DNA of 64,000 nucleotides, from the NCBI GenBank assembly GCA_965222115.1, contig CBDCTJ010000007.1:2176001-2240000 (forward strand), read 5' to 3'. The notes beneath the pieces are model-generated. The model saw nothing but the letters and a program-made list of their open reading frames with translations, was not told the origin of the DNA and ran no database searches. Position numbers and translations under genes: made by a program. Origin of the DNA: Planctomycetota bacterium. GTDB taxonomy: Bacteria > Planctomycetota > PLA2 > JAEUHO01. Numbering within the stretch: position 1 is the first letter of the stretch; every line of letters begins with the position of its first letter. Below are positions 14,572 through 51,760 of the stretch, piece after piece.

Positions 14572-14669
14572 ACGGCTTCAACACGTCCTGAGTCTTAATC
14601 CTTCTCCTGAACCGTATCCGTATCCCGTCCCAACCAAACACGTTGACCAACCCAAGTCGGGGTCAGGCG

Positions 14670-15164: not shown

Positions 15165-15292
15165 ACACCACCTCCGAGGGCGGGAGCTTACGGCACCGCG
15201 ACCGGAGTTCGAAACGACGCGCCGGAGTCGATTCACGCTTCTCGCGACTTCCGATGGAACAACCACGATGCGACCGTTGGTATGCTTCAGAA

Positions 15293-16717: not shown

Positions 16718-16731
16718 GACTGAGAATTCGG

Positions 16732-16737
16732 TATAAT
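16732..16737 (+). promoter_or_regulatory. Possible sigma70 -10 box for the downstream gene
   Basis: Perfect TATAAT ~40 nt upstream of the ATG at 16779; no convincing -35. Confidence 0.35.
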
Positions 16738-16778
16738 CACCGGTCATTCGCAGTCGCTTGATTGGTCAGGAGGCGTCC

Positions 16779-25786: not shown

Positions 25787-25990
25787 GAACCACCACGTCA
25801 ATCGCTTTGCGTTTCACCCTGTGGGATCCACATGACCGCCGAAACACGTTCCTGCGAGCATGCCGCAGCCGCTCCATGGGGTCGTTGCCCTATGAATTTG
25901 GTAGTCTTAGCGCCCGCACTTTGAGGGGGATGGTTGATGGCCGGGCCGACCGGCCGCCTCATTCATCCTCACGATTTCGGAGCCGAGTAC

Positions 25991-28072: not shown

Positions 28073-28180
28073 CGCGCCCATGTCTGTGGACCGTTTGGCC
28101 ACGCGTTCGAACCAACGTTCGACCATACGCACGACTTCGACGGGACGAACACTCTCGCTACGATAGGCCCGGGAGGCGGC

Positions 28181-33999: not shown

Positions 34000-34204
34000 G
34001 CATCGTGCTCAAGCTCCCCGTGTACAAGACCCCGATCGCATTCTGCCGCGCTGCGCACTGATGGATCGATGCAGATGTTGAATGCGAACCGCTTGTCGAT
34101 CGCGCCCCATGACGTTCCAAAAATGAACATGGCCCCGAGCCGCAAACTGCTCGGGGCCATCTTCGCTTGACGACGCGCAAAGGCGCATCGTGCGCTCAAT
34201 GCGC

Positions 34205-37045
34205 TTAGCGCATGAACTTCTCTTCCTGCTCGGTGAGATCGGTGATCTCGGCGCGCACGATGATCATCAGGTGGCTGACTTCATCGCTGCGGCCCTTACG
34301 GCTGAAAAGGAAGCTAAGCAACGGGATCTTGCCAAGGAAGGGGATCTCGCTCTGGCGGTCTACCGTGCGAATGTCCTTCAACCCGCCGATCACGATTGTG
34401 CCTTGGTCGGGCACGCGCACCGTGGTGCGAACCTGCTGGAGGCGCAGCTCGGGCAACTGAATGATGACCGGGGCGAACGATGAGGCGAGCGACGTTGCGA
34501 ACTCTTGGATGGGACGACGAAGGCGTGCCACCGTGGGCTGCAACTCAAGCGTGATGTAGCGACGGTCGTTGGAGACCGTGGGGCGTACGTCGAGCGTGAG
34601 GCCGTCCTGAATGATGCCCACAATCGGGTCAGCGATGAAGGAGGTCTGTGCGACCTCTACGTCGAAGTCCTGAATGTAGGAGATCTGATTCACCATCGTC
34701 AGGTTGGCGCGCTGCGTGTTGTAGACCGTTACGATAGGTGCGGTCAACGTGCGAGCGCTCAAAGACTTCTCCGTGGCTCGAACAATCATCGAGACCTCGG
34801 TGTCGTCGATGATGCTCATAGAGAGCGTGGCGCCACCGACGCTTGAGAGCACTTCGCCAAGCGGATTGTCGAAAATGTTCTCGGTACGTCCGCGGAAGTC
34901 GCCGTCCTGACCATCGTTGAAGTAGGCACCGGCGGAGGGCGGCAGTGCCGCACCCGTAGCCAGACCCGCGCCACCGTTGTCAAAACCTGCTGACGCCGCG
35001 TCTTCCAGACCGTTCGTGACGTCATCGAGGTTGACGAGCGTGCCGGGATTGGCACCCGCAACACCGTTGTTACCACCGAGGCCGCGGAAATCGACACCCA
35101 CGTCCTTCAGGAAGTTTTCGCTGACTTCAAGGAACCGGCTCTCGACCGTGACGACGATGCCAGCAAAGCCCCGCAAGTCGTCGAGGAAGTTGGCCACGCG
35201 CTGCTGAATGTCGGCGTTGGCCGTAACCACAAGATTTTGCTGACCTTGCGGAGCGATCTCGGCGCCTTCGGTCTCTTCCCAATACTTGGGCGATACCGCG
35301 CCCTTGATGAGCTCAATCAACTCGTCGGCCTGGCCGTAGGGGAAGATGGGCTCTTCAGACTCGGTTCCGAATAGCGGCGTTTCTTCATTGGCAAGATCAT
35401 CGGGACCCACCAAACGAATGGTGGGGGGAATGAAATCGGTCAAGCCCGACGTGAGGTCGGCGACCGGGTGGATTTCCACCTGGAACTTCTTGTCCTGATA
35501 CTCCTTGGAAGTGAAGACGATGATGTTGCCCTTGGGCGTCCAAATCACGTTTTCATCGCCCGAGTGCGAGCGCAACATTTCGAGCACCTGCTTGAGCGGT
35601 GCGTCTTGCACAACCAAGTTGGCAACCTTGGACTCATTTACGGACGAAGCGATTCGCGCGTCGACCATGATGTTGATACCGGTCTGAACACGAAGCGTGC
35701 TGATGACTTCACCAAACGCGCGGTCGTTGACGTCGAGGTTGACCATCGTGTTGCCGACGCGTGCCATGAGCTCGGCGGCTTCGGGATCGTCGTCTTGTTC
35801 GTTGAACGTGGGGCGTGAGGACTTGCGCAGATCCGTGATCTTGTCCCAGAACTTGCGGCTGGGCCACACAAGGATCTTGTCTTGCGGAATGCGCGTGGCC
35901 TGAATGTCGTCCATCCACTCGCGGAAGGCCTGCTTTTCTCGCTTGAGGTAGTCTACTTCCAACTGGTTGTGGCGAGCGCGCTCAGCGGCTTCACGAAGGT
36001 CTTGCGCCTTGGTGTTGTCGGGCTGCTCTTCCAGGATCTTTTCAGCGTACGCGATCGCGCTCACATAGTCGTCGCGATCGAATGCCTTGACCGCCGCACC
36101 CATCCACTGTTCAAGACGCTCAAGCTCAGCCAGGAGTTGCTGCTCTTCTTCCTTCGCCATTTCGGCAAGGGCGTCTTCGATGGCGCTTTGGCGTGCTTCC
36201 TTTTCGGCGGCTTCCTTCTGCGCCTTTGCTTGGCGGAGGCCGTTTTGTGCGTCGGACTCGATGGAACCCCACTCAACCTGGAAGGGCGATGTGTTGATGA
36301 TGAACAACGAGTCTTGGAACGCCTCAATCGCGTCGTCGTAGCGCTCATTGGTGAGGTGCATACGACCTACGTTGTTGAGCTTGCCCGCTTTGGTGCGTTG
36401 CTCTTCAATGCGCACCTTGGCGTTGAGCGCACGGCTCTTGGCGTAGTCGTCGGCGGCGTTGGCGCGGCTGCCAAGCATGGACATAACTTCGCGCATCATG
36501 AACTTGGCTTCGGCGTTGTCGGGAGAGATCTCCATCGCCTCACGCAAACGATCGCGCGCGTCGAGGTATTCGCCATTACGCATGTGGACGCGTGCGGCAT
36601 TGACCTTGCTCTGTGCCAAGAACCGTTCGCGGTCGGCTGTGGCCGCCGCGGGATCTACTGCCGGGGGGCCTTCCATGGGCGGGCCGCCATAAACAGGCAT
36701 CTCGTCGGTGAGCACCTTCTTGACGTCATCGGACGCGTCGCTATCGGATCCAAACACGCCTTTGGCCGGCGCGTCAGAATCGATTGCAACTGATCCCTTG
36801 GTTTCCGATTTCTTCGTATCCGCCTTATTCGAATCAGCGAGTCCGGTGGCTTTGGGACTGCTGCTCTTGTCAGCGAGCGTGCGCGTGGAATCGCCGCTTG
36901 CATCAAGCACGTCATTCAAGGAACGAGAGCGACATGAAGAAAGTCCAACCGTAAGCAAGACTGCAAATGCAACGACGCCAAGCGTGTGTGCGATTGCAGT
37001 GGTTGAACGGACTCGCCGCGAGAAAGTCATGGCAGTGCGCGTCAT
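34205..37045 (-). CDS. Secretin-family outer membrane protein B (lipoprotein, N-terminal TPRs)
   Basis: Lipobox LSSC; TPRs; N domains; VTVESRFLEV, AP.VTVYNTQRA, GLTLDVRPTVS.D.RYITL, TTVRVPD.GTIVIGG, IPFLGKIPLL..LF. Confidence 0.88.
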   Translation of the reverse strand: MTRTAMTFSRRVRSTTAIAHTLGVVAFAVLLTVGLSSCRSRSLNDVLDASGDSTRTLADKSSSPKATGLADSNKADTKKSETKGSVAIDSDAPAKGVFGSDSDASDDVKKVLTDEMPVYGGPPMEGPPAVDPAAATADRERFLAQSKVNAARVHMRNGEYLDARDRLREAMEISPDNAEAKFMMREVMSMLGSRANAADDYAKSRALNAKVRIEEQRTKAGKLNNVGRMHLTNERYDDAIEAFQDSLFIINTSPFQVEWGSIESDAQNGLRQAKAQKEAAEKEARQSAIEDALAEMAKEEEQQLLAELERLEQWMGAAVKAFDRDDYVSAIAYAEKILEEQPDNTKAQDLREAAERARHNQLEVDYLKREKQAFREWMDDIQATRIPQDKILVWPSRKFWDKITDLRKSSRPTFNEQDDDPEAAELMARVGNTMVNLDVNDRAFGEVISTLRVQTGINIMVDARIASSVNESKVANLVVQDAPLKQVLEMLRSHSGDENVIWTPKGNIIVFTSKEYQDKKFQVEIHPVADLTSGLTDFIPPTIRLVGPDDLANEETPLFGTESEEPIFPYGQADELIELIKGAVSPKYWEETEGAEIAPQGQQNLVVTANADIQQRVANFLDDLRGFAGIVVTVESRFLEVSENFLKDVGVDFRGLGGNNGVAGANPGTLVNLDDVTNGLEDAASAGFDNGGAGLATGAALPPSAGAYFNDGQDGDFRGRTENIFDNPLGEVLSSVGGATLSMSIIDDTEVSMIVRATEKSLSARTLTAPIVTVYNTQRANLTMVNQISYIQDFDVEVAQTSFIADPIVGIIQDGLTLDVRPTVSNDRRYITLELQPTVARLRRPIQEFATSLASSFAPVIIQLPELRLQQVRTTVRVPDQGTIVIGGLKDIRTVDRQSEIPFLGKIPLLSFLFSRKGRSDEVSHLMIIVRAEITDLTEQEEKFMR

Positions 37046-37372
37046 TGAAACGTCCACTCCGAGCGAGGCCACGTGTGGGGGCAAGTCGTCCGGATCGTGC
37101 AACGCGCGGATGCCTCCCTGCACCCGCGAGTCATCCGTTTGGACGGCTCACGCAACCGTTGAGCGGGGGGCCTTCCGCCGCTCAACCTGGGGCCGCGCCC
37201 TCCTTCGACGCGACCTCCTCCCTGTGCGTCATAGGACACTGGAACGTGGTCATGTCTTTGTCATAAGCACCCGGCATAAACCGATTTCTGGCGCTTTGCC
37301 GCGAATCCGTTCGTCACGCGCCTGTGTCGGTGGTCGCGTGGCAAACAGGCGCCTACGAACTCGGGCTATCCG

Positions 37373-39166
37373 TCAGCGACACGTTCTTGCGTGTTGTGCT
37401 TTTTGTCGGTTGGTGGTGCACAGTCGCTCTGCGCGATTGCATGCCGCACGTGCCTCTTTGTCCCGCCCGAGCTCCTTCAAGAATCTCGCTCGGAGCAGCT
37501 CGACTTGGCAGTCGGGCGCAGGCAGCTCACCTGCCAAATGCTCCAATCGATCGAGCATCTCATCTTCCCTACCCACACCATTGACCATGCACGCCATGAG
37601 CAATGTTGCGGGAGCCCGACGTCCCAGCGCCCATGAGCGAAGGTAGGCCGCCTCCGCGTGCGCGCTTGCTCGCGCATCACTCGCCGAGATGGCGTGTCGC
37701 CGAAGGGCTTCGGCTCGCCAGAAGTGTGCTTCGGCATTGTTCGTGTCTCGTTCGCATAATTGATCGAGTTCGTCCAAAATGCGGCTTGGGACGCCGACCG
37801 AGGGTGGCGTCCCACGAATGGCCGCAGCGATTTCGTCAAGCCGCTTGGCATCTGCCATGTGCTCATGCGGATCGAGCAACGACGCGTTCTTCTCGGGCGA
37901 CAGAAAGGGGGTGACTAGTGCCGCCCCGCCGTAGCCACTGGACGCGGTTGCGTGGGTCGCGCGGTCGCCTCGATCCAATGCGCGATAGGCGCCGAGCATG
38001 TGCCTGAACAATTCGAGTCCTTCGACGGTCGGATCCTCGGTTGTACTCGTCGAGGGTGTGTTGGGTAGCGACTCGATCCACCGTTGGCGACCGAGGCCGC
38101 TATCCACCAGTAGGCCACGTGTGGTTGCTACGCCCGAAAGTTGTGCCCAGCGATAGCGACTGTGAGCAAAGAGCGATTCCACGGGTAGCGCGGCATCGTT
38201 CGCGCGCGACGTCGCGAGCAGGTCAATCCCTGAGCCCGGCACAACGGAAGCGTCCCATGCGATCCCCGCGAGTCCGGCAATCGTGGGTGCAATGTCCTGC
38301 AAGCATGCGATGTCATTTCGATCGTGATCTCGTTGTTCTGCACCCGTAATAAACATGGGCACCCGGAGCACTTCACCGCTCAACAACATGCCGTGACTCT
38401 CTTCGCCAAGGGCACCCAACGCCTCACCGTGGTCCGCGGCAACAATAACCGTGACGTTTCCTCGACCCCGTTCCGCCAAGCCTGTCATCAAGTGGCCAAT
38501 GGCATGATCCATGGCGGCGATATCGCCCACGTAGCCACGCGGCGTGCGATACGGGCGATGGGGGTCAAAGAGATGAACCCACAAGAAAACGTTGCTGTTG
38601 GCTTGCACACCATCCAAGTGTGCCAATGTGGTTGCGACGGTGTCTTTTGCGGCGCGTTCCGGTACGTTCAACGACGTGAGATCGTCGAGGTTCCCGTCGT
38701 CATAGTGCGTAAAACCCTGTTGCAGGCCATAGCGCTTGGACAATACACCTGCCGAAACAAACGCAGCCGTGTGCCAACCCGCGCGACGAAGGCGTTCTTG
38801 GATCAGGGGATATCCCCGTGTCGTAGAACGGGGCAGCGGCGGGCTGGCATTGACGCGCACACCCGTTGCGGCGGGGGGCAGCGCACTGAGCATCGACAGG
38901 TGCGCTGGCAACGTTAGAGGCACAGGACTAAACGCGTGGCGAAATCGAACGGCGTCCTTCGCCAATTGATCCAAATTCGGAGTATCTAGCCCTTGAGGTG
39001 CCTTGTCACCCGCCAGGGCACGAATGTAGTCGTGTCGCAACGTATCCGGCGTGAGCAGGAGAATCGTCTTGCCGGACCCGACGGGCGCTTCGCCGACATC
39101 GCGATTCAACAACCAAAGTGCCGCCGCAATCCCAAGCGCTGCAAGTAGCAAGAAGACCCTACGCAT
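37373..39166 (-). CDS. Sulfatase-like alkaline phosphatase superfamily enzyme with C-terminal TPRs
   Basis: DTLRHD, PLTLPAH.S, HLFDPH, ADHGE, HG; N-terminal signal/TM; start uncertain. Confidence 0.85.
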   Translation of the reverse strand: MRRVFLLLAALGIAAALWLLNRDVGEAPVGSGKTILLLTPDTLRHDYIRALAGDKAPQGLDTPNLDQLAKDAVRFRHAFSPVPLTLPAHLSMLSALPPAATGVRVNASPPLPRSTTRGYPLIQERLRRAGWHTAAFVSAGVLSKRYGLQQGFTHYDDGNLDDLTSLNVPERAAKDTVATTLAHLDGVQANSNVFLWVHLFDPHRPYRTPRGYVGDIAAMDHAIGHLMTGLAERGRGNVTVIVAADHGEALGALGEESHGMLLSGEVLRVPMFITGAEQRDHDRNDIACLQDIAPTIAGLAGIAWDASVVPGSGIDLLATSRANDAALPVESLFAHSRYRWAQLSGVATTRGLLVDSGLGRQRWIESLPNTPSTSTTEDPTVEGLELFRHMLGAYRALDRGDRATHATASSGYGGAALVTPFLSPEKNASLLDPHEHMADAKRLDEIAAAIRGTPPSVGVPSRILDELDQLCERDTNNAEAHFWRAEALRRHAISASDARASAHAEAAYLRSWALGRRAPATLLMACMVNGVGREDEMLDRLEHLAGELPAPDCQVELLRARFLKELGRDKEARAACNRAERLCTTNRQKAQHARTCR

Positions 39167-39276
39167 GACGACGAAGGTAGGTCCCGCATCTTTGCGTATC
39201 AAGTCTCGATGTTACTCACCACGCGTTCCGACTCGGCATTGGGCTTGTTCACCGAAACCCTCCTCCGACCGGCATC

Positions 39277-39852
39277 TCACTGAGGCTTGCGCGTGCCCTC
39301 AAACACGACGTCTGTCACGCCCAGTCGCAAAAACTCGTTGATGATGGCCATAACATCGCCGTGTGGCACCGAGCCGCCGCGTGGTTCGGGTGCGACAATC
39401 TCGCCCTTTCGCTTGCCAGGCTCAACACCTTGAACTTGACGTTGCATCGAGTTGCGAAGCGCGGCCATGACCGCTTGGTAATCGCGCACGCGCACCGGTG
39501 ATTCATGTAGATGGCCGCGCCACTTCGTAGGTAACGCATACGTTCTTGGCAAGTGTCCCACGCGCATCACTGTGCGTTGCTGTTCAGTGCCTAGGTTGCG
39601 TACGAACACCTTGACCTTGCATGCGTCCAAGTCCTCGGCCGGTGTTGGTATCGACGCCATGCCGCGATCATGTGGCAATGCTGCATCGATGCGCGAATCG
39701 ATGTCCTTGAACTTGAGACTCAGTAGAAAGAAGATGATCAACTGAAACACGATGTCGATCATCGGCGTCATGTTGAGTTCACTGTCTTCGCCGGCCGCGG
39801 CACGTTTCCACGCGCCGACTGTTCCGGATCCCTGACCAATCGGTAGAGCCAT
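39277..39852 (-). CDS. exbD: ExbD/TolR-like protein (copy 3)
   Basis: ELNMTPMIDIVFQLIIFFLL TM with the conserved Asp; AGGAGAG RBS before MALPIG. Confidence 0.82.
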   Translation of the reverse strand: MALPIGQGSGTVGAWKRAAAGEDSELNMTPMIDIVFQLIIFFLLSLKFKDIDSRIDAALPHDRGMASIPTPAEDLDACKVKVFVRNLGTEQQRTVMRVGHLPRTYALPTKWRGHLHESPVRVRDYQAVMAALRNSMQRQVQGVEPGKRKGEIVAPEPRGGSVPHGDVMAIINEFLRLGVTDVVFEGTRKPQ

Positions 39853-39890
39853 AGCCCTCTCCTTTGCGACATATGGGTCGGACGCAATGA

Positions 39891-39932
39891 GGGTGGGGGG
39901 CGGGTCAGACGGGGGTGGGGGGCGGGTCAGAC
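39891..39932 (+). repeat. G-rich direct repeat GGGTGGGGGGCGGGTCAGAC x2
   Basis: Copies at 39891-39910 and 39913-39932. Confidence 0.85.
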
Positions 39933-39997
39933 GTTGCGAGAAGCCGTCAGCCTGGAATCGACCGACGGCATCGCATGTTTGTGGATGTTCGCGCTGG

Positions 39998-40636
39998 TTA
40001 CTTACCCTGTGCGCGCGCGGCACGTTCGGTGCTTGTGAGCGGCGTTGCTTTGCCCTCAAAGACCACGTCGGTGATGCCCAGCTTTAGATAGACATTGAGC
40101 ACGCCCATGACATCGCCATGGGGCACCGCCCCGCCTTTGGGTGGCGGCGCAACGATTTCGCCTTTGATTTTGGCGTTGTCTACCGTCTTGCCTTGGTCTT
40201 CGGCCGTATACGCGGCTTGAAGAGCGGCCACCACCTCGGGGCCGAGGCGCTTGCGAATGGCTTCGTAGAGCTGATTGAACTTGCTGTCGTACTCTTCAAC
40301 GCGAGCGGTGTTGTTGGCGGCCTCTTCCTTGGAGCGCCCTTTCCACTGCTTCGGCAAGAGAAAGATGTTCTTGCTGTTTTCAATCTTCATCATCGTGTGT
40401 TCGCTGGGCTTACCCAAGTCGCGCCGGAAGACCTTCACTTTGACCGTGTTGAGATCTTCGGGGAAGGTGGGCGTGGCTGCCATGCCACGATCCTTGGGCA
40501 ACATGCTGTCGATGCGACGATCGATGTTCTTGAACTTCAGACTCAGCAAGAAAAAGATGATCAACTGGAACACGATGTCAATCATCGGTGTCATGTTGAG
40601 TTCGGTATCTTCCGGTTCGGGGAGATTCAGTGCCAT
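39998..40636 (-). CDS. exbD: ExbD/TolR-like protein (copy 2)
   Basis: ELNMTPMIDIVFQLIIFFLL; extended periplasmic domain. Confidence 0.85.
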   Translation of the reverse strand: MALNLPEPEDTELNMTPMIDIVFQLIIFFLLSLKFKNIDRRIDSMLPKDRGMAATPTFPEDLNTVKVKVFRRDLGKPSEHTMMKIENSKNIFLLPKQWKGRSKEEAANNTARVEEYDSKFNQLYEAIRKRLGPEVVAALQAAYTAEDQGKTVDNAKIKGEIVAPPPKGGAVPHGDVMGVLNVYLKLGITDVVFEGKATPLTSTERAARAQGK

Positions 40637-40649
40637 CAGAGCCCCCTTT

Positions 40650-41156
40650 CTACTTCTCGTCTTCTTCGGGAAGTTTCTTCACCGAGAATTGTAGCTTGTA
40701 GACCTTGATGTCCTTGTGGGCGCACGCTTGCATCACCCACTGCACGTACTTCCACTTCGCGCCACGGTCGGCGTTGATCATGATCGGCACTTTGCTCGCG
40801 CCGTCTTCTTCACGCAGATCGGGGTCATTGCCAATCAGACCGCGCAGCGCGTCCTGAAGATTTTGAATGGCGTCGTCGGCGTCACCGGGATCTTCCGAGG
40901 AAAGATCAAACTCGCGATCGCGGAAAATGACCTTGCCGTCGCCCGTGAGGTTGACGGTAAAGCGCTTGACCTCGGCTTTGGGGTCTTCCTTGTCCTCATT
41001 GCCCATCGAGGCGATGGGAAGCTCCACCGGGAAGAACTCTTTCTGCGACAAGTCAATGGTGAGCATGAAAAACACGACCAAGAGGAAGGTCATGTCAATC
41101 ATGGGCGTCATGTTCATCTTGGCGTCTTCTGTTTCAATCAGAACAGGTGCTGCCAT
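40650..41156 (-). CDS. exbD: ExbD/TolR protein (copy 1, canonical)
   Basis: MNMTPMIDMTFLLVVFFM, VELP, IMINADRGAKW..V..VM..C. Confidence 0.9.
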   Translation of the reverse strand: MAAPVLIETEDAKMNMTPMIDMTFLLVVFFMLTIDLSQKEFFPVELPIASMGNEDKEDPKAEVKRFTVNLTGDGKVIFRDREFDLSSEDPGDADDAIQNLQDALRGLIGNDPDLREEDGASKVPIMINADRGAKWKYVQWVMQACAHKDIKVYKLQFSVKKLPEEDEK

Positions 41157-41266
41157 GCGTGGCTCCTCGATGTCGGGTCGGACGCCTGGAAATGATTCGC
41201 GCTTCTTGGTTTGTGGGTTTGTGCGCGGGGAGCGCGAACCCCCGCAACACTAGCGTATCAGGTCGT

Positions 41267-41959
41267 TTAGCGGCTGCGGAAGCGCTCGGTCATCTCTTCC
41301 AAGACTTCGGCGAAGTGGATGGAGATGCGTGTGGCCTTGTTTCGGAAGTATTGGTAGGCCGTAACCGCGGGAATCGCTACCAACAATCCCAAGAACGTGG
41401 TGACGAGCGCGGCAGAAATACCACCGGCAAGGTCGGCTGGCGTGACCTTGGCACCCTTTTCCACGATTGTTTCGAACGCCGTGATCATACCCGACACCGT
41501 ACCGAACAGGCCGAGCATGGGTGCCACGTTGGAGAGGAAGAGCATCCAGCTCACCTTTTGCTGCAGCTTGACCGCTTCCACGCCCGCGGCTGCATCGACG
41601 GCTTCCTTCACTTTGGGATAGCCTTCGTTCAATCGGGGCAGCCCCGCCGCCAACGAGCGCGTCACGAAGTTGGGCTCGGACTCGCAGAGTTCGAGTGCTT
41701 CTTGGTACTCGTCTTCTTCCAGCAATGCTTCCACCTCGTCGATGATCTCGGGGGGGCAGAGCTTGTCGGCGCGGACGTTTACGGCGTACTCAATAATGAG
41801 GGCCACCGTAGCGATGGACAGGGCGATAATCACCCAACCAATGGCGCCGCCATCCTCGAGAATGCCGCCGATGGACATCGCGTGAGCGTCGGGAGCAAAC
41901 GCCAAGGTGCATACCGAGGCGAAACCTAGTGAAACGATCAAAGTGCTGAGCTTGGGCAT
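41267..41959 (-). CDS. exbB: MotA/TolQ/ExbB proton channel subunit
   Basis: APMLGLFGTVSGMITAF, LAGGISAALVTTFLGLLVAIP; N-terminal signal ending AHA. Confidence 0.93.
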   Translation of the reverse strand: MPKLSTLIVSLGFASVCTLAFAPDAHAMSIGGILEDGGAIGWVIIALSIATVALIIEYAVNVRADKLCPPEIIDEVEALLEEDEYQEALELCESEPNFVTRSLAAGLPRLNEGYPKVKEAVDAAAGVEAVKLQQKVSWMLFLSNVAPMLGLFGTVSGMITAFETIVEKGAKVTPADLAGGISAALVTTFLGLLVAIPAVTAYQYFRNKATRISIHFAEVLEEMTERFRSR

Positions 41960-42369
41960 GGCCGCATGGACTCCGAAAACTGGGACCACGAGGGTTGGGT
42001 GAAAACGCGGAGGACTCCCTCGATTCCGTCCGCGACCAATACGTGAAATCCTGAACTGAATGTTCGTTGGTTGAAAATTCGTCGACCCGAGACGATTGAT
42101 TGGAGGGCGAGTGCTCCCAGCGTCGCTATCGCGCTACGAGAACCCGCCACCCAATTCGACGCGCGTCAGATGACGCTGCCGCCGATCTACCTGCCTCCGG
42201 GCGAGCCGAAGCGTACCCGATCGCAGGAAATGCCGCTACTTCCGGCGAGCCCGGATTAATCGTGAAGTACGCGCCGCGCCGTTTCCGGTGCGATGAACGT
42301 GGTTCATGAGCGTCTGGGATTCGATTGGATCTGGGATTGGATATCGCCCGGAATCGGATGTTGAGCGCC

Positions 42370-43842: not shown

Positions 43843-46800
43843 CTAGTTATCTTCCGTGGCGGGCTGTGTGGAACCCGCTGCTTTCGGCATTGGGACCGTG
43901 TCCGCGGACATGCTGAGCTTCATACGTAGCGTCTCAATGCGCTTGCTCAGCGCGGTGAACTCCTCCGGGGTTTCCGGTCGAACGCCTACGCCCACCGTGG
44001 GGTCGCCCATCGCAAGGCGCTTGAGCAACCTTGTTGAGAGTTCAGCCTTCTCTTTGGCATCGCCGGAGTCACCGCTCACGCTTTGAAGCATTTCGGCCCA
44101 CTTGGTGGCGGCGGCGGCGCGAATGATCTGCGCGCTCCACCACTCGGCGCTTCCGTCTTCCACACCAAACTGACGCGACTTCACCAATCCCTCGCACAAA
44201 CGCAGGGCCTTGGGTTTGTCTTCCAGGCGCTCCGACTCGGAGTACACCCAGGCAAGCGCCAAGCGGAAGTCGATGGTGTCGTTGGCGTGCAACTTGTAAA
44301 ACGCAGAGTCGAATCCACAGGGGTGAAAACTGGCCACCACTTGCTTGGCTTCACGCTCGGGCTGAGCGCGTGTGACGTAGGTACGGAAGTGTTCGACGCC
44401 GGCGAGGTAGCGTCGGTTGGCCGCGTCATTGGCAAATACAGGCACCGCAAAGCCACCACTCTTGCCAAGTGTCTGCGCCACTTGCTTAAGTTCGGCCACG
44501 GTCTTGACTCGGGGCAGCACGTAGCGGCGACTGACATTGTCAACATTGCTTGTCCATCGCACGACCGCGTAATCGCCCTTGATATGTCCAACGAGCAAGT
44601 CCGTATTGGCGGAAACATTGGCAATACCCGCCTGCAAGCGCTCAAGCGCTTTACCGACAAGTTTCCTTCGTTCCTCGTTTGAATCGGCACGCCGTGCCAA
44701 CTCGTAATACACGGTCCCGAGCCATCCCGTGACCTCTTGGCGATCCGACTCTTTGGTGCCCTCAAAGTTCAAGTAATCCTCGGCCAACTCCTTGCACCGT
44801 TCCCAGTTCTCCTTGACTTCGGGCCGCAACTTGGCCGCCTTCAAATAGTTGTGGGCAAAGATCTTGACGTTTGCGGGGTTCTGCTTGACGCCCGACTTCT
44901 TGCGCTCGATGTAGAGACGGTAGTAGTAGCCCACAGAACGTGCACGCGGGTCATAGATCTTGAGCTTGAGTTCGGCCAACTCGTTGTCGAGCGCGGCCTT
45001 GCGCGTGATGAGTTCACCTTCTTCGGCCACAAACTTGTTGATCTTCTCGTTCAGGCGTTTGATGTCGGCCTTGGCTTCGGGAATGCCCTTGGATGCCTCT
45101 TCGAAGTCGGCTTTGGACACACCAAAGTCTTCGCCCTCCGTCTGCTGCTTCTCCCAGATTTTTATGGCCTGCTCGTATTTCCCGATCAGGTTCTTGACGT
45201 CACCGACGCGCTCACGCGCCTTGAAGATGAGATCACCCGTGGACTTGATTTTCTTGTTGAGCCCCATTGGCTGCTCACGGGTCCCGTACAACTCTTGCGT
45301 AATCTCGCGAATGCGCGTCTCAAACACCTTTGCTTTGCCGGCAAAGTGCTTGGCCATGGAACTCGTGATGCTGTCAAGTCGCGGGTAGGTGGCATCGGCT
45401 TCGATAAGCTGCGTTAAGTACCGTTCGGCCTTGTCTACCTCACCCTTGCCAATGTGGGCAAGCACGAGGTGGCCAAGCGTGCCGGCGTAGATCTGCTTCT
45501 GACCGCCACTGCCGTTTTTGAACTGGCTATACTTGGCGTGAAAGCCATCCAAGGTCTTGAGGATCTCGTCGAACTGTTCCTGTTTGTAGTGCGCCTCCGC
45601 TTTCCAATAGAGCGCCTCGCCAAGAGCCGCCTGACGCCGACTGGCAACCGTAGCGAACTTGGCAGCCTGGTCCTTGGCCTCCTTGGAGTTCCAGTAGGCG
45701 GTCGCAGCCTCGAATGCCTTTAGGCTGCCATTCCAGTCATCTTGCTCGTGGGCAACGCGCATGAGCTGTACCCATGCCGCGTCTTGTCGCGGGTGGGAGG
45801 GGTCTTGCGTTACTTGCTTGAACAACGGAATGGAATCTTGATACGCCTTCTTCCAGCCCGACGCCTTAGTGCGTTTCTGCTTACGTGCCTTGCTCAGTGC
45901 CTCGCGGGCTTCATCCCAAATCGTGCGGGCACCCGAAGGATGGTTGGGGTAGTCGGTTTGGAAACTCTTACGAATATCGGCGAAGCGTTTCCGGTAGGCC
46001 TCGTCGCCGGTGAGTTCATAGAGTTGCTTCCATTTGCGCATGGCCGTCTGGCGGAAGTTGCCCATGGCGATCATGTTCTGATCGGTCGCCGTACCGTCGG
46101 TCGGCAACAAGCCGTCCATCCAGATTTCATGCAGCGCGTCATACGCCAGAGCACAACCAACGAGGTCGCCGCTTGATTCGGCGGCTCTGGCAATCTTCTG
46201 CCATGACGGAACAATGAGTTCCTTGATGGACGCTTCGTCTTTGTTGGAGGCGAGGATCGCTTCTTGGAACGTGCTTATGGCTTCATCCCACTTTTCTTGG
46301 GCGTAGAAACTCTTGCCGATGCGCTCCAACACCTTGGGGTCGGCGCGGCTTGCCCCCCCGCTACCGCCCATCACGATTTCTTGAAGCAATGCGTTGGCAC
46401 GATTCTCAAGATAACCCTTTCCTTCGGTACGGGCGAACGCAGCAGCCTTGTTGGCATATTCGGTAGCCTCGGTGGTGCGTTCACGAAGAAGCTCAATGCG
46501 TGCCAATTCGATGAGGGCGAGTATGCCGTCGTCGTATTTGCCAGCGCGCGGCACGAGCTTGAGCATCTGTCCCACAACCTTGGACGCATCTTTGTAGAAA
46601 TTATAGCCCGCAATGCGGCCCGCTTGGCGGCACGTGCGCGCGTAGAGGTAGTAGCCGCGGCAGATGATCCGCTCTTCGTCGTTCGATACATTGTCCGTTT
46701 GCATGACGGTGTCGAACCACTCATTGGCAAAGCGGTAGTTTTCTTTCTTTTGCTCGTCATCCGTGGCGCATTTGGCCAACTCCACGTAGTTCTTCCCGTA

Positions 46801-47562
46801 GATCAACGCCGCGTGTACGGCAACAAGTTGTCCGTCTCGGAGCGTGATGTAGTCCTCAAGTGCATTGCCGGCGCTCTTGAATGCGTTGACCGCAGCTTCG
46901 CTGCAGCGTTCCATGACCAATGCGCGATAGTGTTGGCAGCGTACCCATTCAAACTGGGCGATCTCGGCGCGCAGGGGTGCGTCTTGGGCGTCGTGGCCCT
47001 CGCGCAAACCATCAAAGTATGAGATGGCCTTTTCCACCATGGATTTGGCATCGCTGATGACCGTCTCGACGTCGGTCTTGCGCTTCTTTAGACGCTCAGC
47101 GTCGGGGGCGAGCGTTTCGCGCGCCCAAATCACGAATCCCAATCGCGTGCGACCTGCGCTCATCTTGGCCTCAAGCGCGCGCGGGTGGCTGGGGTTGTTC
47201 TCTGCGAACTTCTCCATCGCCTGGCTCGCCTGCTCGTAGGCGGCAAGCACATCTTTGTAGGGCACGCTGGAGCGACCCCGCAAACCGTCAGCACGTTGAC
47301 TATCGAGACGCGCGAGGCCGTACCGCGCGAGTTCCTTTTGCTCGTCGGTGCCGGTCGCCAGGCTGTTTTCCAAAACTTGGCGTGCGTACACGAAGTAAAA
47401 GTCCTTACCCCTTCGCTTGCCAAGTTCTGCGAGTTTCTGGGCGAACTCGAAGTCATCTGCGCCGGCTTCTGCGTGGGGTTGCCATGCGGGACACGCCAAG
47501 GCGAGCGCCAACGCTAGGGATAGATAAATCGGGGTGCGAGCAACGCGTGACATGGAGTTCAT
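43843..47562 (-). CDS. Large exported TPR/coiled-coil protein (1239 aa)
   Basis: Signal peptide; many TPR-like repeats; long heptad segment (FETRIREIT...LDNELAELKLK). Confidence 0.85.
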   Translation of the reverse strand: MNSMSRVARTPIYLSLALALALACPAWQPHAEAGADDFEFAQKLAELGKRRGKDFYFVYARQVLENSLATGTDEQKELARYGLARLDSQRADGLRGRSSVPYKDVLAAYEQASQAMEKFAENNPSHPRALEAKMSAGRTRLGFVIWARETLAPDAERLKKRKTDVETVISDAKSMVEKAISYFDGLREGHDAQDAPLRAEIAQFEWVRCQHYRALVMERCSEAAVNAFKSAGNALEDYITLRDGQLVAVHAALIYGKNYVELAKCATDDEQKKENYRFANEWFDTVMQTDNVSNDEERIICRGYYLYARTCRQAGRIAGYNFYKDASKVVGQMLKLVPRAGKYDDGILALIELARIELLRERTTEATEYANKAAAFARTEGKGYLENRANALLQEIVMGGSGGASRADPKVLERIGKSFYAQEKWDEAISTFQEAILASNKDEASIKELIVPSWQKIARAAESSGDLVGCALAYDALHEIWMDGLLPTDGTATDQNMIAMGNFRQTAMRKWKQLYELTGDEAYRKRFADIRKSFQTDYPNHPSGARTIWDEAREALSKARKQKRTKASGWKKAYQDSIPLFKQVTQDPSHPRQDAAWVQLMRVAHEQDDWNGSLKAFEAATAYWNSKEAKDQAAKFATVASRRQAALGEALYWKAEAHYKQEQFDEILKTLDGFHAKYSQFKNGSGGQKQIYAGTLGHLVLAHIGKGEVDKAERYLTQLIEADATYPRLDSITSSMAKHFAGKAKVFETRIREITQELYGTREQPMGLNKKIKSTGDLIFKARERVGDVKNLIGKYEQAIKIWEKQQTEGEDFGVSKADFEEASKGIPEAKADIKRLNEKINKFVAEEGELITRKAALDNELAELKLKIYDPRARSVGYYYRLYIERKKSGVKQNPANVKIFAHNYLKAAKLRPEVKENWERCKELAEDYLNFEGTKESDRQEVTGWLGTVYYELARRADSNEERRKLVGKALERLQAGIANVSANTDLLVGHIKGDYAVVRWTSNVDNVSRRYVLPRVKTVAELKQVAQTLGKSGGFAVPVFANDAANRRYLAGVEHFRTYVTRAQPEREAKQVVASFHPCGFDSAFYKLHANDTIDFRLALAWVYSESERLEDKPKALRLCEGLVKSRQFGVEDGSAEWWSAQIIRAAAATKWAEMLQSVSGDSGDAKEKAELSTRLLKRLAMGDPTVGVGVRPETPEEFTALSKRIETLRMKLSMSADTVPMPKAAGSTQPATEDN

Positions 47563-47728
47563 GAGATAGGGGACCTCGCGGTACAGAAGCCGAATAGGAG
47601 ATACGCGCGAATAGAACCAGATCGCCCATGCTCATGGATTGGGATTCCATGAAGCGGGCGAAGCCTTACCCAGCGCGCACGTCGCGATCGCGCCGAAACG
47701 GCGCATGGAGATGTGCTCGCATCCAAGA

Positions 47729-47770
47729 ACACGTATCCCAGGACACGTATTTCGGGACACGTATTTCGGG
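47729..47770 (+). repeat. Short direct repeat ACACGTAT x3 (GGACACGTATTTCG x2)
   Basis: Read directly; intergenic, upstream of the TPR/exb genes. Confidence 0.7.
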
Positions 47771-48099
47771 TTACGAACGGCGGCATTCTAAGGATGCGCC
47801 CTCTGACGGTCAATGCGACCCAAGGCACCCGCCGCGATTGCTTCCCCAAAACCAAGCAGGACGACCCGAACTCAGAAACCCGAAGGGCAGCAATTCGACG
47901 GGCAGGGCATCCGCGCAAAACGAAGAAAGCCTCACCGCTTCACGGCGAGGCCAGAACGGGCGTCGGGTCGGACGACCTGCACAGCAGTATACACGTGAAT
48001 TCCAACGATGCAAGCCCGCATGACGATCGCGAGCATTGACGGCCTGTGGCGACTCGCAGCACCTGCCACCTCGCTTCCGCGAACCCAACAAAAATGAGC

Positions 48100-48131
48100 G
48101 AAGGCCTTGAACCCTTCGATTCAAGGCCTTC
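48100..48131. terminator. Intrinsic terminator after secretin A, possibly bidirectional
   Basis: GAAGGCCTTGAA-N8-TTCAAGGCCTTC perfect 12-bp stem; T-runs follow on both strands. Confidence 0.8.
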
Positions 48132-48172
48132 TTTTCGCCACTCGGACGGGTCTCGCTACATCCCCGGATCGA

Positions 48173-51100
48173 CTAGCCGCCGGGGATCATCATGGGCACG
48201 GGCTCCATCATGGGCATCATCGGATCACACGGCGAACAAGGCGGCGCGGGATTCACGATGACGGGCTCGCACGGATCGCACACGTTGCAGGGTGCGGGCG
48301 CGGGCTCCACCATGACCGGAGCAGCCACGGGGCAAGGCACCGGCTCGGCCGGAATGTTGCACTGACCGCCTTCGCAGTCATCGCAATCTTCAAAGTCCAC
48401 GATGGGCACGTAGTCGCGTACGTCGAGCGGGGGGATGTCCAAGTTGTCCTTGGGCTCGCGCTCGGACAGCGAGACAACATTCGCACGCACCAAGATCATC
48501 AGGTTGCGGCGATTGACGAAGTTGCCCTTTCGCGTGAGCAGCATCGAGAGAATCGGAATCTTGGAGAGAATCGGTACTCCGCTCTCACGCACATCCTTCT
48601 CGTAGAACTTCATGCCGCCGATCAGCAACGTGCCGCCATCGGGCATGGTCACTGTTGTGCGGACCTTGCTCACTCGCAACTCGGGAATCTGCAATGTGAC
48701 GGGTGCGTTGGCACCAATCGGGCCCGATGCCAAGTTCGTGGTGAACTCGCCGATGGGACGAACCACTGTGGCAACGGTGGGGCGCAGTTCAAGCTGAATG
48801 AAACGACGGTCTGCCGAGACAACCGGGCGCACATCCAATACGACACCTTCCTGAATGGTCTGGATGACCGGGTTGGCGATATTGGACGCCTGGGCAATCT
48901 CAACTTCGTAGTCCTGCACATACGAAATCTGGTTGAGCACCGACACGTTGGCGCGCTGCGTGTTGTAAACCGTAATGCGCGGTGCGGTAATCTCCTGGAT
49001 GCGCTCCGACTTCTCAACCGCGCGAAGAATGACTTCTACGGCGGTGTCATCGAGGTAGGTGTGCTGGAAGGAGAGGCCACCCGTGTTGCGCAAGCGGTCG
49101 GGATCGCCGAAGCGACGAACCACGGTGTCGAAGAGGTTCTCGACACGACCGGCGTACGCGCCGTCGGAGTTGTCGTTGTAGAAGATACCGGCGTCGTTTG
49201 CCGTACCGACCGAGCTGGGCTCGGGGTTGGTACCAAACGGGACACCTGACGGGTTCGCCGACGTGCCAAAGAACACGTCATCGATTACGACGGGCGGACC
49301 CGAACCCTGTGTCTGGACCGGATTGACGCCGCTACCCAAGCCACGCACGTCTACACCTACGTCGCGCAGGAAGTTGTCTTCCGCGGTGAGGAAGCGCACT
49401 TCGAGGTCCACGAGAATGCCGCTGTTTGCGCGCAACTGACGAAGCAAATCGGAAATCTGTGCGTGGATCGCGGGCGTATTGCGCACGATCAGGATGTTGT
49501 TGCGGGGCTCGATGCTGGCGGGCTCTTCCCAGGCCGGCTCACCACCAATGGTGGTCTTGATCAGTTCGACCAAGTTTTCCGCAGCAATGATGGGCTCGGG
49601 TTCGGGGAGCTCAGGGGGTTCGGGTGCTGCGAAGTTCGACGGGACAAGATTGATGTCTTGGCCGATGAAATTCTGAATGGCTACGGCGAGGTCCTTGACG
49701 TCGTAGTAGTCAAGCTTCATCGTCTCCTGAACTTCGTCGGGCATGCTGATGTAAATCACGCCGCCGCGCGGGCCCCAACGCAGGTCGTACTGGCTGGTGA
49801 GCACGTCGAGCAGGTTGTAGACACTCACGTCGTCGAGTTCGAGCGTGAGTTCGATCTCTTCACCCTTCTCATCGCGCACCTTCGGCGTGACGTGGAAGTT
49901 GAGACCGGTGTAGACGCGGAGGTACTCGACGGCGCGGTCGAGCGTGGCGCCTTCCCACACAAGGCCCTTGACGCGCTTCTTGCGAAGTACGGCCATGACG
50001 GCTTCATTGGCAACGTCGGTTTCGCCCACGTCGCTGTCGCCCACGGAACGAGGCGTGCGGATGGCGATGTCTTCCAACCAGTTATCGGGGAAGCGAACCA
50101 CGTCGATCTGAGGAAGGGCGCTGCGCTCGAGGTCGAGCATGATGCTCTTCCATTGGTTGTCAAAGCGACGACGGTTCTCTACCTGGTTCTTCATGTGTTC
50201 CGCGTCGTGCGACATCTCAATGATGCGATTCGCGTCACAGTTGCCGGGGTCGGAGCGCAAGATGTTCTTGGCGTAGGTGCGAGCGAGTTCGTATTCGCCA
50301 CGGCGGAAGGCGCGGTGTGCACCCTCAAACCAACTGCGGATACGCGCCATGCGTTGTTCGCGAATGCCCGCGAGTTCGATTTCCTTTTCTTCTTGGGCAT
50401 CACGAATCTGCTCTTGGCGGTTGCGACGCTCCAAGACTTCGGCTTGGTACGACGTGTTGTCAATCAAGTCGCGAATGGCGGCGGCGCTCGTTCCAAAGTC
50501 ACCGGTCTCGTCGTACCAAGAAATGATGGCCAAGGCTTTTTGGAATTCCTTGACGGCTTCCTTGTAACGCTCTTCACCGGCAAGTTGAGTACCGTTGTTC
50601 AGATGCTTGCGCACTTCAGTAGAGGCCTGATCGCGGCGCACTTGCGATACCGACGTGCGGTCTTCGTGGTACTGATCGGCAGTGGATGCACGGTTGGGAG
50701 AAAGGCCGTGCCAGCCTTCGCGGGCAGCTTCGCTCTGCGGATCAATCTGAAGCGCCTTATAGAAGAAGTCGCGCGCCGCGTCCAAATCGCCAACCTCAAC
50801 GGCCGCACGACCTTTCTTTACGTACTGTTCGACGAGGAACTGATTGCGGCTACTGATGACATTGCCCATGTCTTCGGGCGTCATGCCACCCGCGGGACCC
50901 GCGTCACCATTGTCTGGTGATGGGGCTGGTAGGCCTTCCATGGTTGGACTGCTTCCGGCTGCACTACCCGACGTATCACCTGTTACCGGTGCAATGGCCG
51001 GAACAACGGGTGCAGCGGGCTGCATGAATGGAATCGCAGCAGCGGCATGGTTGGCAGCCGTGGTCGCTTCGACAACTGTGCCGTGTACTGCGTTACCGGC

Positions 51101-51427
51101 TTTCTCCGCAACGCCATTTGCCAGAGTTGCAGGCTCGGGGAATGCACCCTCAGCCTTCTTCGCAGCGCGCTTTGCTGCATCCTTCACAGCAGATGCTGCT
51201 TCGGACGCAAGCGGTTGCGCCTTAGCGGGAACGGGCGGTGTCCCGTATTCGGACGCATCAGGCGCGGCATCGGAATCGGATCCGAAGATGCCTTTCTTGC
51301 TATCAGGCGCGTCGCTCTTAGACGTGGACGATGCCGTATCGAGATCGCCGGTAACCGACGGACTCTGACAACCGACCGAAATGAAAAGCATTCCAATGAA
51401 TGCAAGGAATGGGGCAATACGCTTCAT
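48173..51427 (-). CDS. Secretin-family outer membrane protein A (lipoprotein, TPRs, Cys/Pro-rich tail)
   Basis: Lipobox SVGC; TPRs; LVDLEVRFL, APRITVYNTQRA, GVVLDVRPVVSADRRFI.L, TTVTMPDGGTLLIGG, VPILSKIPIL. Confidence 0.88.
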   Translation of the reverse strand: MKRIAPFLAFIGMLFISVGCQSPSVTGDLDTASSTSKSDAPDSKKGIFGSDSDAAPDASEYGTPPVPAKAQPLASEAASAVKDAAKRAAKKAEGAFPEPATLANGVAEKAGNAVHGTVVEATTAANHAAAAIPFMQPAAPVVPAIAPVTGDTSGSAAGSSPTMEGLPAPSPDNGDAGPAGGMTPEDMGNVISSRNQFLVEQYVKKGRAAVEVGDLDAARDFFYKALQIDPQSEAAREGWHGLSPNRASTADQYHEDRTSVSQVRRDQASTEVRKHLNNGTQLAGEERYKEAVKEFQKALAIISWYDETGDFGTSAAAIRDLIDNTSYQAEVLERRNRQEQIRDAQEEKEIELAGIREQRMARIRSWFEGAHRAFRRGEYELARTYAKNILRSDPGNCDANRIIEMSHDAEHMKNQVENRRRFDNQWKSIMLDLERSALPQIDVVRFPDNWLEDIAIRTPRSVGDSDVGETDVANEAVMAVLRKKRVKGLVWEGATLDRAVEYLRVYTGLNFHVTPKVRDEKGEEIELTLELDDVSVYNLLDVLTSQYDLRWGPRGGVIYISMPDEVQETMKLDYYDVKDLAVAIQNFIGQDINLVPSNFAAPEPPELPEPEPIIAAENLVELIKTTIGGEPAWEEPASIEPRNNILIVRNTPAIHAQISDLLRQLRANSGILVDLEVRFLTAEDNFLRDVGVDVRGLGSGVNPVQTQGSGPPVVIDDVFFGTSANPSGVPFGTNPEPSSVGTANDAGIFYNDNSDGAYAGRVENLFDTVVRRFGDPDRLRNTGGLSFQHTYLDDTAVEVILRAVEKSERIQEITAPRITVYNTQRANVSVLNQISYVQDYEVEIAQASNIANPVIQTIQEGVVLDVRPVVSADRRFIQLELRPTVATVVRPIGEFTTNLASGPIGANAPVTLQIPELRVSKVRTTVTMPDGGTLLIGGMKFYEKDVRESGVPILSKIPILSMLLTRKGNFVNRRNLMILVRANVVSLSEREPKDNLDIPPLDVRDYVPIVDFEDCDDCEGGQCNIPAEPVPCPVAAPVMVEPAPAPCNVCDPCEPVIVNPAPPCSPCDPMMPMMEPVPMMIPGG

Positions 51428-51760
51428 CCCGAAATCCATCCTTTCGCTCGTAGACGATGGACGTTGCTATAGCGCATGCGGATCAACACCCGCACACGGT
51501 TCGCAACAATCACGAACGCTCCGGTTTGCGCAAAATGTGCAGTTGACTCAACTCGCGCACGGCCCCTGATTTAGGGGGGGTGTGCACCCAGTGGAATTCG
51601 CCTGCCTCTTACGCGAACCGCTCCTCCCTCCCTGGAGGATGCCTTCGCCGGTCGATATGGAAGTTTGAGCCTGTCATGTCCACGTCACCTGTACCCCCCG
51701 GAAATCGAGTCTTTTGGGGTATTGGCTTACCTATCACCCCCCTGACGTAGACTTCCGACC

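Follow-up and report, generated by a model that had tools for sequence, protein, structure and literature searches.

The window analysed here is a stretch of 64,000 nucleotides from a Planctomycetota bacterium (GenBank assembly GCA_965222115.1, contig CBDCTJ010000007.1; G000:C7:2176001-2240000 in our numbering), whose genome assembly, G000, amounts to 4.55 Mb in 7 contigs and is 90% complete. It contains a cluster of nine genes in which an ExbB/ExbD-type proton motor and two tetratricopeptide repeat (TPR) proteins are encoded between two secretin genes. Gene content was determined by Pfam and NCBIfam profile searches of the translations of open reading frames (ORFs), and export signals were judged by eye from the protein sequences. 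The original prediction had described nine co-oriented genes on the minus strand, and all nine ORFs are present at those places (34205-51439), the end of secA given there (51427) being the second methionine of an ORF that reaches 51439. In the order in which they are read, the genes are:

48173-51439, minus strand: secA, lipoprotein TPR-secretin A, 1088 aa (Pfam TPR and Secretin)
43843-47562, minus strand: TPR-L (TPR1239), large periplasmic all-helical TPR/coiled-coil protein of 1239 aa with a signal peptide (Pfam TPR)
42370-43842, minus strand: TPR-M (TPR490), periplasmic protein of 490 aa (Pfam TPR)
41267-41989, minus strand: exbB, ExbB/TolQ-like proton channel, likely start Met11 at 41959 (PF01618)
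40650-41156, minus strand: exbD1, canonical TolR/ExbD-like subunit (PF02472 over the full length)
39998-40636, minus strand: exbD2, TolR/ExbD-like subunit whose periplasmic domain contains a helical insertion (PF02472)
39277-39852, minus strand: exbD3, paralog of exbD2, ORF open to 40059, likely start 39852 (PF02472)
37373-39202, minus strand: membrane-tethered alkaline-phosphatase-superfamily ("sulfatase-like") enzyme (PF00884, PF01663)
34205-37123, minus strand: secB, lipoprotein TPR-secretin B, 972 aa, likely start near 37045 (Pfam TPR and Secretin)

Known secretins cooperate with cytoplasmic ATPases, and known ExbBD or TolQR motors use TonB or TolA to act on receptors or on Pal. That none of the usual partners is encoded in the window had been part of the original prediction and holds throughout: none of the 8 T2SSE matches of the genome (GspE/PilB/CpaF-type ATPases), none of its 12 prepilin-motif matches, neither of its two TonB-dependent receptor matches and not its single TonB_C match lies inside, and a T2SSF platform protein was absent from a Pfam scan of the 25 other large window ORFs. 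In none of the nine cluster proteins was a von Willebrand factor type A (vWA) domain matched (Pfam VWA), and the NCBIfam equivalog cut-offs of GspD, PilQ, MshL, Amuc_1098, TolQ, ExbB and TolR were reached by no cluster protein.

The exbB product matched MotA_ExbB (PF01618) with 94.1 bits (gathering cut-off 22.9) and is the sole match to the MotA/ExbB family in G000; similarly, the three ExbD matches of this genome all lie inside the cluster. Among the NCBIfam models, the highest score for ExbB was obtained with TolQ (84 bits; cut-off 221), the ExbB equivalog giving 47.5 bits (cut-off 206.2), and ExbD1, which matched PF02472 over its full length with 67 bits, scored highest with TolR (40.5 bits; cut-off 127.3). 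For ExbD2 and ExbD3, 31.9 and 33.8 bits were obtained with PF02472 (cut-off 25.4), the N-terminal transmembrane part alone being matched, and the transmembrane aspartate D20 is invariant in a 36-sequence alignment of the exbD2/exbD3 type. An AlphaFold2 model of ExbD2 (pLDDT 82.7) was aligned by VIA-align with ExbD 8vgd_B (Z 8.0, rmsd 1.9 over 72 residues, spanning the helical insertion) and with TolR 5by4 (Z 7.4); in a plain Foldseek search the same model had no match at E <= 0.001, TolR appearing at rank 29. Judged by the alignment and this modelled fold, ExbD2 and its paralog ExbD3 are full TolR/ExbD homologs.

Both proteins at the ends of the cluster are members of the secretin superfamily, the Secretin domain (PF00263; gathering cut-off 27.5 bits) being matched by residues 807-989 of secretin A with 90.5 bits and by residues 784-961 of secretin B with 94.9 bits. 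Secretin A is composed of a lipobox signal, a low-complexity linker, TPR repeats, N0/N1-like domains, the secretin domain and a Cys/Pro-rich tail. Lipobox-type signals were read by eye on both proteins, and a strict regular expression detected lipobox-like signals in 19 of 33 secA orthologs and in 18 of 31 secB orthologs. The lipoprotein TPR parts gave weak matches to the pilotin families Tgl and PilW (NCBIfam), by which the secretins look like pilotin-secretin fusions, and this suggests that they are self-piloted.

The original prediction had left room for these secretins to be typical members of the GspD or PilQ classes, which proved not to be the case. With GspD (TIGR02517; cut-off 351.35) secretins A and B scored 69.5 and 79.8 bits, and no T2SSE or T2SSF gene lies in the window; with PilQ (TIGR02515; cut-off 284.35) they scored 70.3 and 65.3 bits, and there is no adjoining pilMNOP. 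The top NCBIfam match of secretin A was the Amuc_1098 family (NF042912), at 97.6 bits (secretin B: 74.9 bits) and below the cut-off of 750. In a FastTree phylogeny of 78 secretins, the secA clade (34 sequences, support 98) and the secB clade (33 sequences, support 99) are sister groups (support 96) whose internal branching runs in parallel, and both are split from PilQ, GspD and two small secretins of G000 with a support of 99. The secretins of three distant loci (L039, L040 and L077) form a separate clade of their own. From this tree, secA and secB are ancient sister paralogs, distinct from the PilQ and GspD of the same genome; their position among the known secretin classes as a whole is provisional, because the outgroups come from G000 alone and long branches were flagged. 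As a separate observation, the upstream secretin of G059 (C50:176-2668) is in two pieces, possibly by a frameshift or an assembly error.

TPR1239 is present in 22 of 24 same-family genomes, and its positional equivalents in distant loci are ORFs of 950-1150 aa, of which four of the seven scanned had TPR matches. TPR490 always lies directly upstream of exbB, and its orthologs share a conserved site resembling that of signal peptidase I (A-x-A|DEI). Two of its distant positional equivalents were homologous by hhalign (probability 96.7 for the L047 ortholog and 56.5 for another). An AlphaFold2 model of TPR490 (pLDDT 93.9) consists of a conserved N-terminal beta domain of six strands followed by a TPR solenoid; its Foldseek matches were generic TPR solenoids, and a search of the ESM Atlas yielded TPR clusters only, mostly labelled Planctomycetota. 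The match at Foldseek rank 10, a Campylobacter jejuni flagellar periplasmic scaffold protein (9hmf_K), is an analogy and not a relationship. A complex prediction for TPR490 with residues 160-660 of secretin B returned a score of 0.00, which is no answer and weighs neither way.

The sulfatase-like protein matched PF00884 with 78.9 bits and PF01663 (Phosphodiest) with 42.5 bits. A TPR tail had been ascribed to it, but no TPR family was matched at E <= 0.01 (Pfam) and its C-terminus only looks helical by eye. Formylglycine-dependent sulfatases carry the nucleophile signature C/S-x-P-x-R, which the window protein does not possess; the corresponding segment reads T-L-P-A-H, and T[LV]P[AGS]H and DHG motifs were present in all 23 full-length orthologs, several of which carry a lipobox. 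The threonine at the nucleophile position points to an enzyme of the alkaline phosphatase superfamily rather than to a formylglycine sulfatase, so that sulfatase activity is doubtful. In one genome (G008; L017 4423-6278) the sulfatase-like gene falls into two reading frames, again possibly through a frameshift or an assembly error.

With a motor that scores higher as TolQ and TolR than as ExbB and ExbD, and with a faint match of TPR1239 to YbgF/CpoB (25.1 bits; NCBIfam), the cluster might be regarded as a Tol-Pal analogue, in which a TolQR-like motor and a CpoB-like TPR protein would tether or constrict the outer membrane over the broad periplasm of these bacteria and the lipoprotein secretins would serve as anchors and not as conduits. 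Such a substitute is conceivable, since TolB_N had no match in G000, at 90% completeness, and with its one MotA/ExbB gene neither a flagellar stator nor a canonical Tol-Pal system was found there; "press stud-like" connections between outer and cytoplasmic membrane, described for Planctomycetes in the accessible text of PMC5394234, would also fit. However, none of the Tol equivalog scores comes close to its cut-off, the cluster contains no Pal or OmpA gene, the two OmpA-domain genes of the genome (C7:1252-1254 kb) being about 960 kb away, and both secretin paralogs keep full secretin domains with a conserved gate-region sequence across the phylum, which is more than an anchor needs. We therefore regard a Tol-Pal analogue as very improbable.

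The conservation of the cluster was studied in 37 loci, comprising 17 from the window's own family, found by tblastn, and 20 from genomes of 17 other families, taken as 10 kb on either side of the best ExbB. In addition, 121 Planctomycetota genomes served as a sample of the phylum. The gene order was the same in all 17 own-family loci, nine of which are complete from secA to secB, the others ending at contig ends. Over all 37 loci the core genes are co-oriented and collinear in the order secretin, TPR-L, TPR-M, exbB, two to five exbD genes, in some cases the sulfatase-like gene, and secretin. Among the 20 distant loci, secretin genes lie on both sides of the motor in 13, on one side in five (two of them at contig ends) and on neither side in two. 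All 35 loci that hold exbB plus downstream sequence have at least two exbD genes after it, and one exbD1-type gene with at least one of the exbD2 type is found in nearly all loci that are uncut at that point.

In the phylum sample, ExbB homologs (E <= 0.001) occur in 120 genomes and secretins of secB grade (E <= 1e-40) in 90. At least 33 genomes from 22 families have an ExbB with secretins within 12 kb on both sides, and at least 27 have one with a secretin within 12 kb on one side. A further 27 genomes have their secretins away from any listed ExbB, and for another 27 no secretin is among the matches listed. These proximity counts are lower bounds, based on 120 of the 150 listed ExbB matches and on all 150 listed secretin matches. 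As the window's class consists of families f1 and f2 only, most of the flanked genomes belong to other classes. The possibility, raised in the original prediction, that the arrangement would not be kept in relatives is thus contradicted, since the order of secretins, exbB, exbD and TPR genes is preserved far beyond the family. From its distribution across these genomes, the locus is an envelope module of ancient origin that is conserved throughout the phylum Planctomycetota.

Because the synteny is kept and the secretins stand apart from PilQ and GspD, one may reasonably infer that motor, TPR proteins and secretins are functionally linked. Our tentative interpretation, to which we assign a probability of roughly 45%, is that of a conserved module in which motor, scaffold and twin secretins are functionally coupled, as suggested by comparative genomics. 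The cluster genes would then serve one trans-envelope apparatus, in which an inner-membrane proton motor of the 5:2 type, partnered in the periplasm by the long proteins TPR-M and TPR-L, would act on or beside two secretin pores of the outer membrane, in gating, in assembly or in the movement of fibres or cargo. The motor block is followed by a periplasmic enzyme of the alkaline phosphatase superfamily. Contacts between the proteins and the direction of any transport are in all of this our inference from the gene content, folds, conservation, co-orientation and paralogy described above. That Ton-type energy matters for a process involving secretins and type IV pili has a precedent in Acinetobacter baumannii, where, according to the accessible text of PMC8811193, deletion of tonB2 lowered transformation from 1.48e-6 to 1.73e-8, that is about 85-fold; a TonB homolog of Pseudomonas aeruginosa that acts in type IV pilus assembly is cited there as well.

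Several sets of observations weigh against such a coupling. They favour an alternative in which the motor would be a general Ton/Tol-like energiser and the secretins would be the ports of ATPase-driven type IV filaments, their adjacency being inherited or due to loose co-regulation. To begin with, two apparently unrelated enzymes are equally deeply conserved as neighbours of the cluster:

51761-52567, plus strand: family-4 uracil-DNA glycosylase (UDG) with a 90-aa N-terminal extension, flanking the cluster
33262-33999, plus strand: haloacid dehalogenase (HAD) hydrolase (phosphatase) of the TIGR02253 type, flanking the cluster

Relative to the cluster, the UDG gene has the same orientation in 10 loci and the opposite one in 8, and for the HAD gene the numbers are 20 and 4; the HAD gene remains next to secB in broken clusters too (L082, L086). 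Conserved adjacency is therefore not by itself proof of a shared function here. Moreover, several lineages have the motor block apart from the secretins. Two genomes (G037 and G125) keep secA, the sulfatase-like gene, secB and the HAD gene without the motor, one (G039) has tandem secretins in the order UDG-secA-secB-HAD, and in three (G043, G104 and G079) the secretins are dispersed. The TPR-L/TPR-M/exbB/exbD/exbD block is intact in G037, G043 and G104, and G039 keeps TPR-L with exbB-exbD, so that TPR-L, which accompanies exbB even where the secretins lie elsewhere, and TPR-M travel with the motor and not with the secretins. Finally, all genome counts given here overstate the support, because related genomes are not independent.

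The fact that the motor lies precisely between two paralogous, co-oriented secretin genes in so many distant loci and families speaks against an absence of coupling. The same applies to G103, where a TPR-secretin gene for 1619 aa lies 32 bp upstream of exbB-exbD-exbD, with recG after them (L101 4817-9676), and where a separate TPR-L or TPR-M gene is missing from the locus. The C-terminal 840 aa of this protein match the secB family (hhalign probability 100). Its extra N-terminal part of about 780 aa (TPR/coiled-coil) was compared with TPR-L as a candidate counterpart, and no relationship was detectable (hhalign probability 5.8). TPR-L/TPR-M motor blocks were mostly not detected in lineages without these secretins, either gene being found near the best ExbB in three of 16 secretin-less genomes, one of the 16 having too little upstream sequence, and near ExbB in three of four genomes with secretins elsewhere.

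A second set of observations concerns the rest of the genome. The cluster motor is the only set in G000 and would presumably also energise the single TonB, whose gene (C7:217803) lies about 2 Mb away beside a TonB-dependent receptor gene, together with that receptor and a second one encoded elsewhere. TonB_C was found in 93 of the 121 genomes and is present in most cluster genomes checked, G048 and G147 being those in which it was not found, so that an ordinary Ton role for the motor is conceivable. Its co-occurrence over the 121 genomes did not separate the hypotheses. One genome, G129, combines an ExbB of the cluster type, adjoining a secretin, with a second ExbB adjacent to a TonB_C gene.

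The remark in the original prediction that ATPases may be encoded elsewhere was correct, all 8 T2SSE matches of G000 lying outside the window, and the genome has 7 secretin-domain matches. Around the secretins and ATPases outside the cluster, Pfam showed a pilM-type operon with its own secretin, PilQ (L065), a complete type II secretion system (T2SS) locus with a GspD of 877 aa, two PilB/PilT/PilC sets that lack a secretin, an orphan ATPase fused to a receiver domain and three small orphan secretins. The two PilB/PilC sets lacking a secretin could be served by secA and secB, as the alternative without coupling would have it; against that, PilQ and GspD already serve one type IV pilus alignment operon and the T2SS. 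Furthermore, a PilM/pseudopilin locus lies 15-26 kb past secA, just outside the window:

G000:C7:2240001-2259900 (L088), starting 1 base after the window end: type IV filament-like locus without ATPase or secretin

This locus encodes a one-transmembrane protein of 933 aa with two forkhead-associated (FHA) domains that match the GltG model, a PilM-PilN fusion of 644 aa, a protein of 319 aa without assignment, a TPR protein of 1039 aa, three pseudopilin-like proteins, one with a LamG domain, and a peptidyl-prolyl isomerase. The PilM-PilN fusion matched the Amuc_1101 family with 135.5 bits (cut-off 650). PilM-like orthologs were found in 78 of the 121 genomes and track the presence of the secretins, both occurring in 71 genomes, the secretin only in 19, PilM only in 7 and neither in 24 (counts and Fisher test uncorrected for kinship). 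Where both were on the same contig, the PilM-like locus was 16-28 kb from the cluster exbB in 11 of 16 genomes (kinship uncorrected), a proximity that is not universal, the distance being 0.28-2 Mb in G135, G095, G125 and G140.

Transcript signals in the region are of a similar tendency. A terminator after secA had been predicted, and a matching hairpin was indeed found, together with two further sites, all of them pattern matches only:

48100-48131, minus strand: terminator-like hairpin after secA, 14-bp stem followed by a T run
47785-47813, minus strand: sigma-70-like promoter match ahead of TPR1239, with agreement at 10 of 12 hexamer positions
34129-34160, minus strand: terminator-like hairpin after secB, 12-bp stem with 9 GC pairs and a T run

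They argue for several transcripts, the hairpin after secA speaking for an absence of coupling, although hairpin-type and promoter-type pattern matches in the region are in total not above shuffled expectation. In the four intergenic gaps, tblastx revealed no ORF conserved in relatives, blastn gave two short matches only and no Rfam family was found. Taking both sides together, we regard it as the main alternative, and as somewhat less likely than coupling, that motor and secretins are neighbours without a common function.

The coupled module that we prefer can accommodate much of this evidence. The secretins would probably also be the outer ports of the nearby pilus or pseudopilus system, of a type resembling Amuc_1098/Amuc_1101 from the Planctomycetes-Verrucomicrobia-Chlamydiae (PVC) group, which would draw on PilB-type ATPases encoded elsewhere, so that the module would work with this system and not instead of it, and the sole motor would presumably also feed TonB and the two TonB-dependent receptors.

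A stronger form of the coupling had been put forward in the original prediction, namely a machine in which the proton motor alone, through the TPR scaffolds, would drive export or uptake across the secretin pores, independently of any ATPase. Synteny and phylogeny speak for its functional link, but the ATPase-free drive is not supported: the linked PilM/pseudopilin locus, the spare PilB/PilC sets, the presumable use of the sole motor by TonB and the lineages in which motor block and secretins lie apart all weaken it. It would be in line with the lack of ATPase, platform and prepilin genes in cluster and window, with the conserved synteny and with the compact secretin-exbB-exbD-exbD arrangement of G103. 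The uptake of green fluorescent protein (GFP) and of 10-40 kDa dextran into the periplasm of Planctomycetes, by a route described as unknown in the accessible text of PMC5394234, is sensitive to carbonyl cyanide m-chlorophenylhydrazone (CCCP), which would also be compatible, but this sensitivity fails to separate the proton-motive force from ATP depletion. In addition, the cluster lacks a TonB/TolA-like transducer, and the conserved histidine of the SHLS helix, known from the accessible text of PMC12204202, is absent: inspection by eye of the hydrophobic segments at the N-termini of the sulfatase-like protein and TPR490 showed no His-bearing SHLS-like helix. An ATPase-independent machine thus appears quite unlikely.

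In a further, speculative extension, the cluster could form the core of the crateriform structures of Planctomycetes and of an energy-dependent uptake of macromolecules into the periplasm, a link that we think unlikely. Two types of crateriform structure with fibres, of unknown composition, are described in the accessible part of PMC5394234. The large and the small crateriform structures, with their 12-nm and 6-nm fibres, would each have one of the two secretin paralogs as its ring in the outer membrane, TPR-L and TPR-M would make the press-stud link across a wide periplasm to the TolQR-type motor, and proton flow would power the gating of the pores or the reeling-in of fibre-bound polymers. 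A caveat is that 31 of the 121 genomes, including five of family f5, have no such secretin at E <= 1e-40. The cluster would supply candidate genes for the composition of crateriform structures and for the energy-dependent crossing of the outer membrane by intact polymers and, if the link were true, would mean secretin-based import in a phylum largely without polymer uptake by SusCD and TonB-dependent receptors.

If the coupling of motor and secretins is true, the cluster represents a new wiring of two well-known modules, a proton motor with giant TPR partners being placed between secretins. If it is not, the data still define a phylum-wide pair of self-piloted TPR-secretins and a TPR-L/TPR-M/TolQ/TolR1/TolR2 block, and the locus warns that deep synteny need not mean a shared function.

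Some other genes of the window were observed as well. Adjoining the UDG gene, a TPR protein of 1391 aa (52726-56901, plus strand) gave weak matches to PilW, Tgl and PrsT and has faint homologs near the cluster in L039 and L075. Six kb from secA lies the gene of a sigma-54 activator with FHA and GAF domains (57655-59673, plus strand), and beside it are HEAT-repeat giants (59673-63023). On the other side of the cluster, an orotidine monophosphate (OMP) decarboxylase/HUMPS-like domain is fused to an RraA-like aldolase domain (10621-11946, plus strand), and two family-5 solute-binding proteins of unusual length (712 and 750 aa) are followed by two ABC permeases of the oligopeptide type (25934-32546, plus strand).

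Compared with the Ton system, the cluster shares a channel of the MotA/ExbB family and ExbD subunits with a conserved transmembrane aspartate. It differs by three ExbD paralogs of two structural types, by its flanking secretins in place of receptors and by the lack of a TonB gene in or near the cluster in any locus. With Tol-Pal it has in common that ExbB and ExbD1 score highest with the TolQ and TolR equivalogs and that a TPR protein takes the place of CpoB, but TolA, TolB and an adjacent Pal are lacking at the window cluster and all scores are below cut-off. The Agl-Glt gliding machinery of Myxococcus, as generally described, combines one TolQ-like and two TolR-like proteins with TPR and outer-membrane partners. 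The cluster likewise joins a single channel gene to several TolR-like genes and has periplasmic TPR partners; it differs in having no TonB-like transducer of the GltG/GltJ type and in that its outer-membrane parts are secretins and not Glt beta-barrels. With the secretins of type IV pili and T2SS and their TPR lipoprotein pilotins (PilQ with PilF, PilW or Tgl), the two window secretins share the C-terminal secretin domain and, in their own N-terminal part, a TPR lipoprotein. In Akkermansia, the Amuc_1098 secretin and the FtsA/PilM-like Amuc_1101 are encoded in a pili-like cluster (PMC5332112, accessible text), Amuc_1098-1102, and both families are matched here, by secretin A and by the PilM-like gene 15 kb away, although far below cut-off. 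Differences are that no pilMNOP or gspE/F/G genes adjoin the window secretins and that these are two paralogs kept together, with a proton-motor block between them.

No published description of this cluster was found in the literature searched, the supplements of PMC12204202, which possibly list planctomycete motor neighbourhoods, being outside that scope. [quoted passage not shown] In other planctomycete loci, vWA genes do occur near ExbB (L049, L080). In L080 (G082; 11395-17693), a second motor locus, with a TIG-domain-ExbB fusion of 415 aa, a TPR protein of 890 aa and a vWA protein of 825 aa, lies downstream of a block consisting of a secretin, a 1038-aa protein, TPR-M, exbB and three exbD genes, and resembles this published vWA class. 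The PVC module with its order TPR-TolQ-TolR-TolR is the closest published kind: the same order is found as TPR490-exbB-exbD1-exbD2/exbD3 in the window and in all compared loci, and in place of the downstream vWA protein anchored by an SHLS-type transmembrane helix the window has a second giant TPR protein, an enzyme of the alkaline phosphatase superfamily and two flanking secretins.

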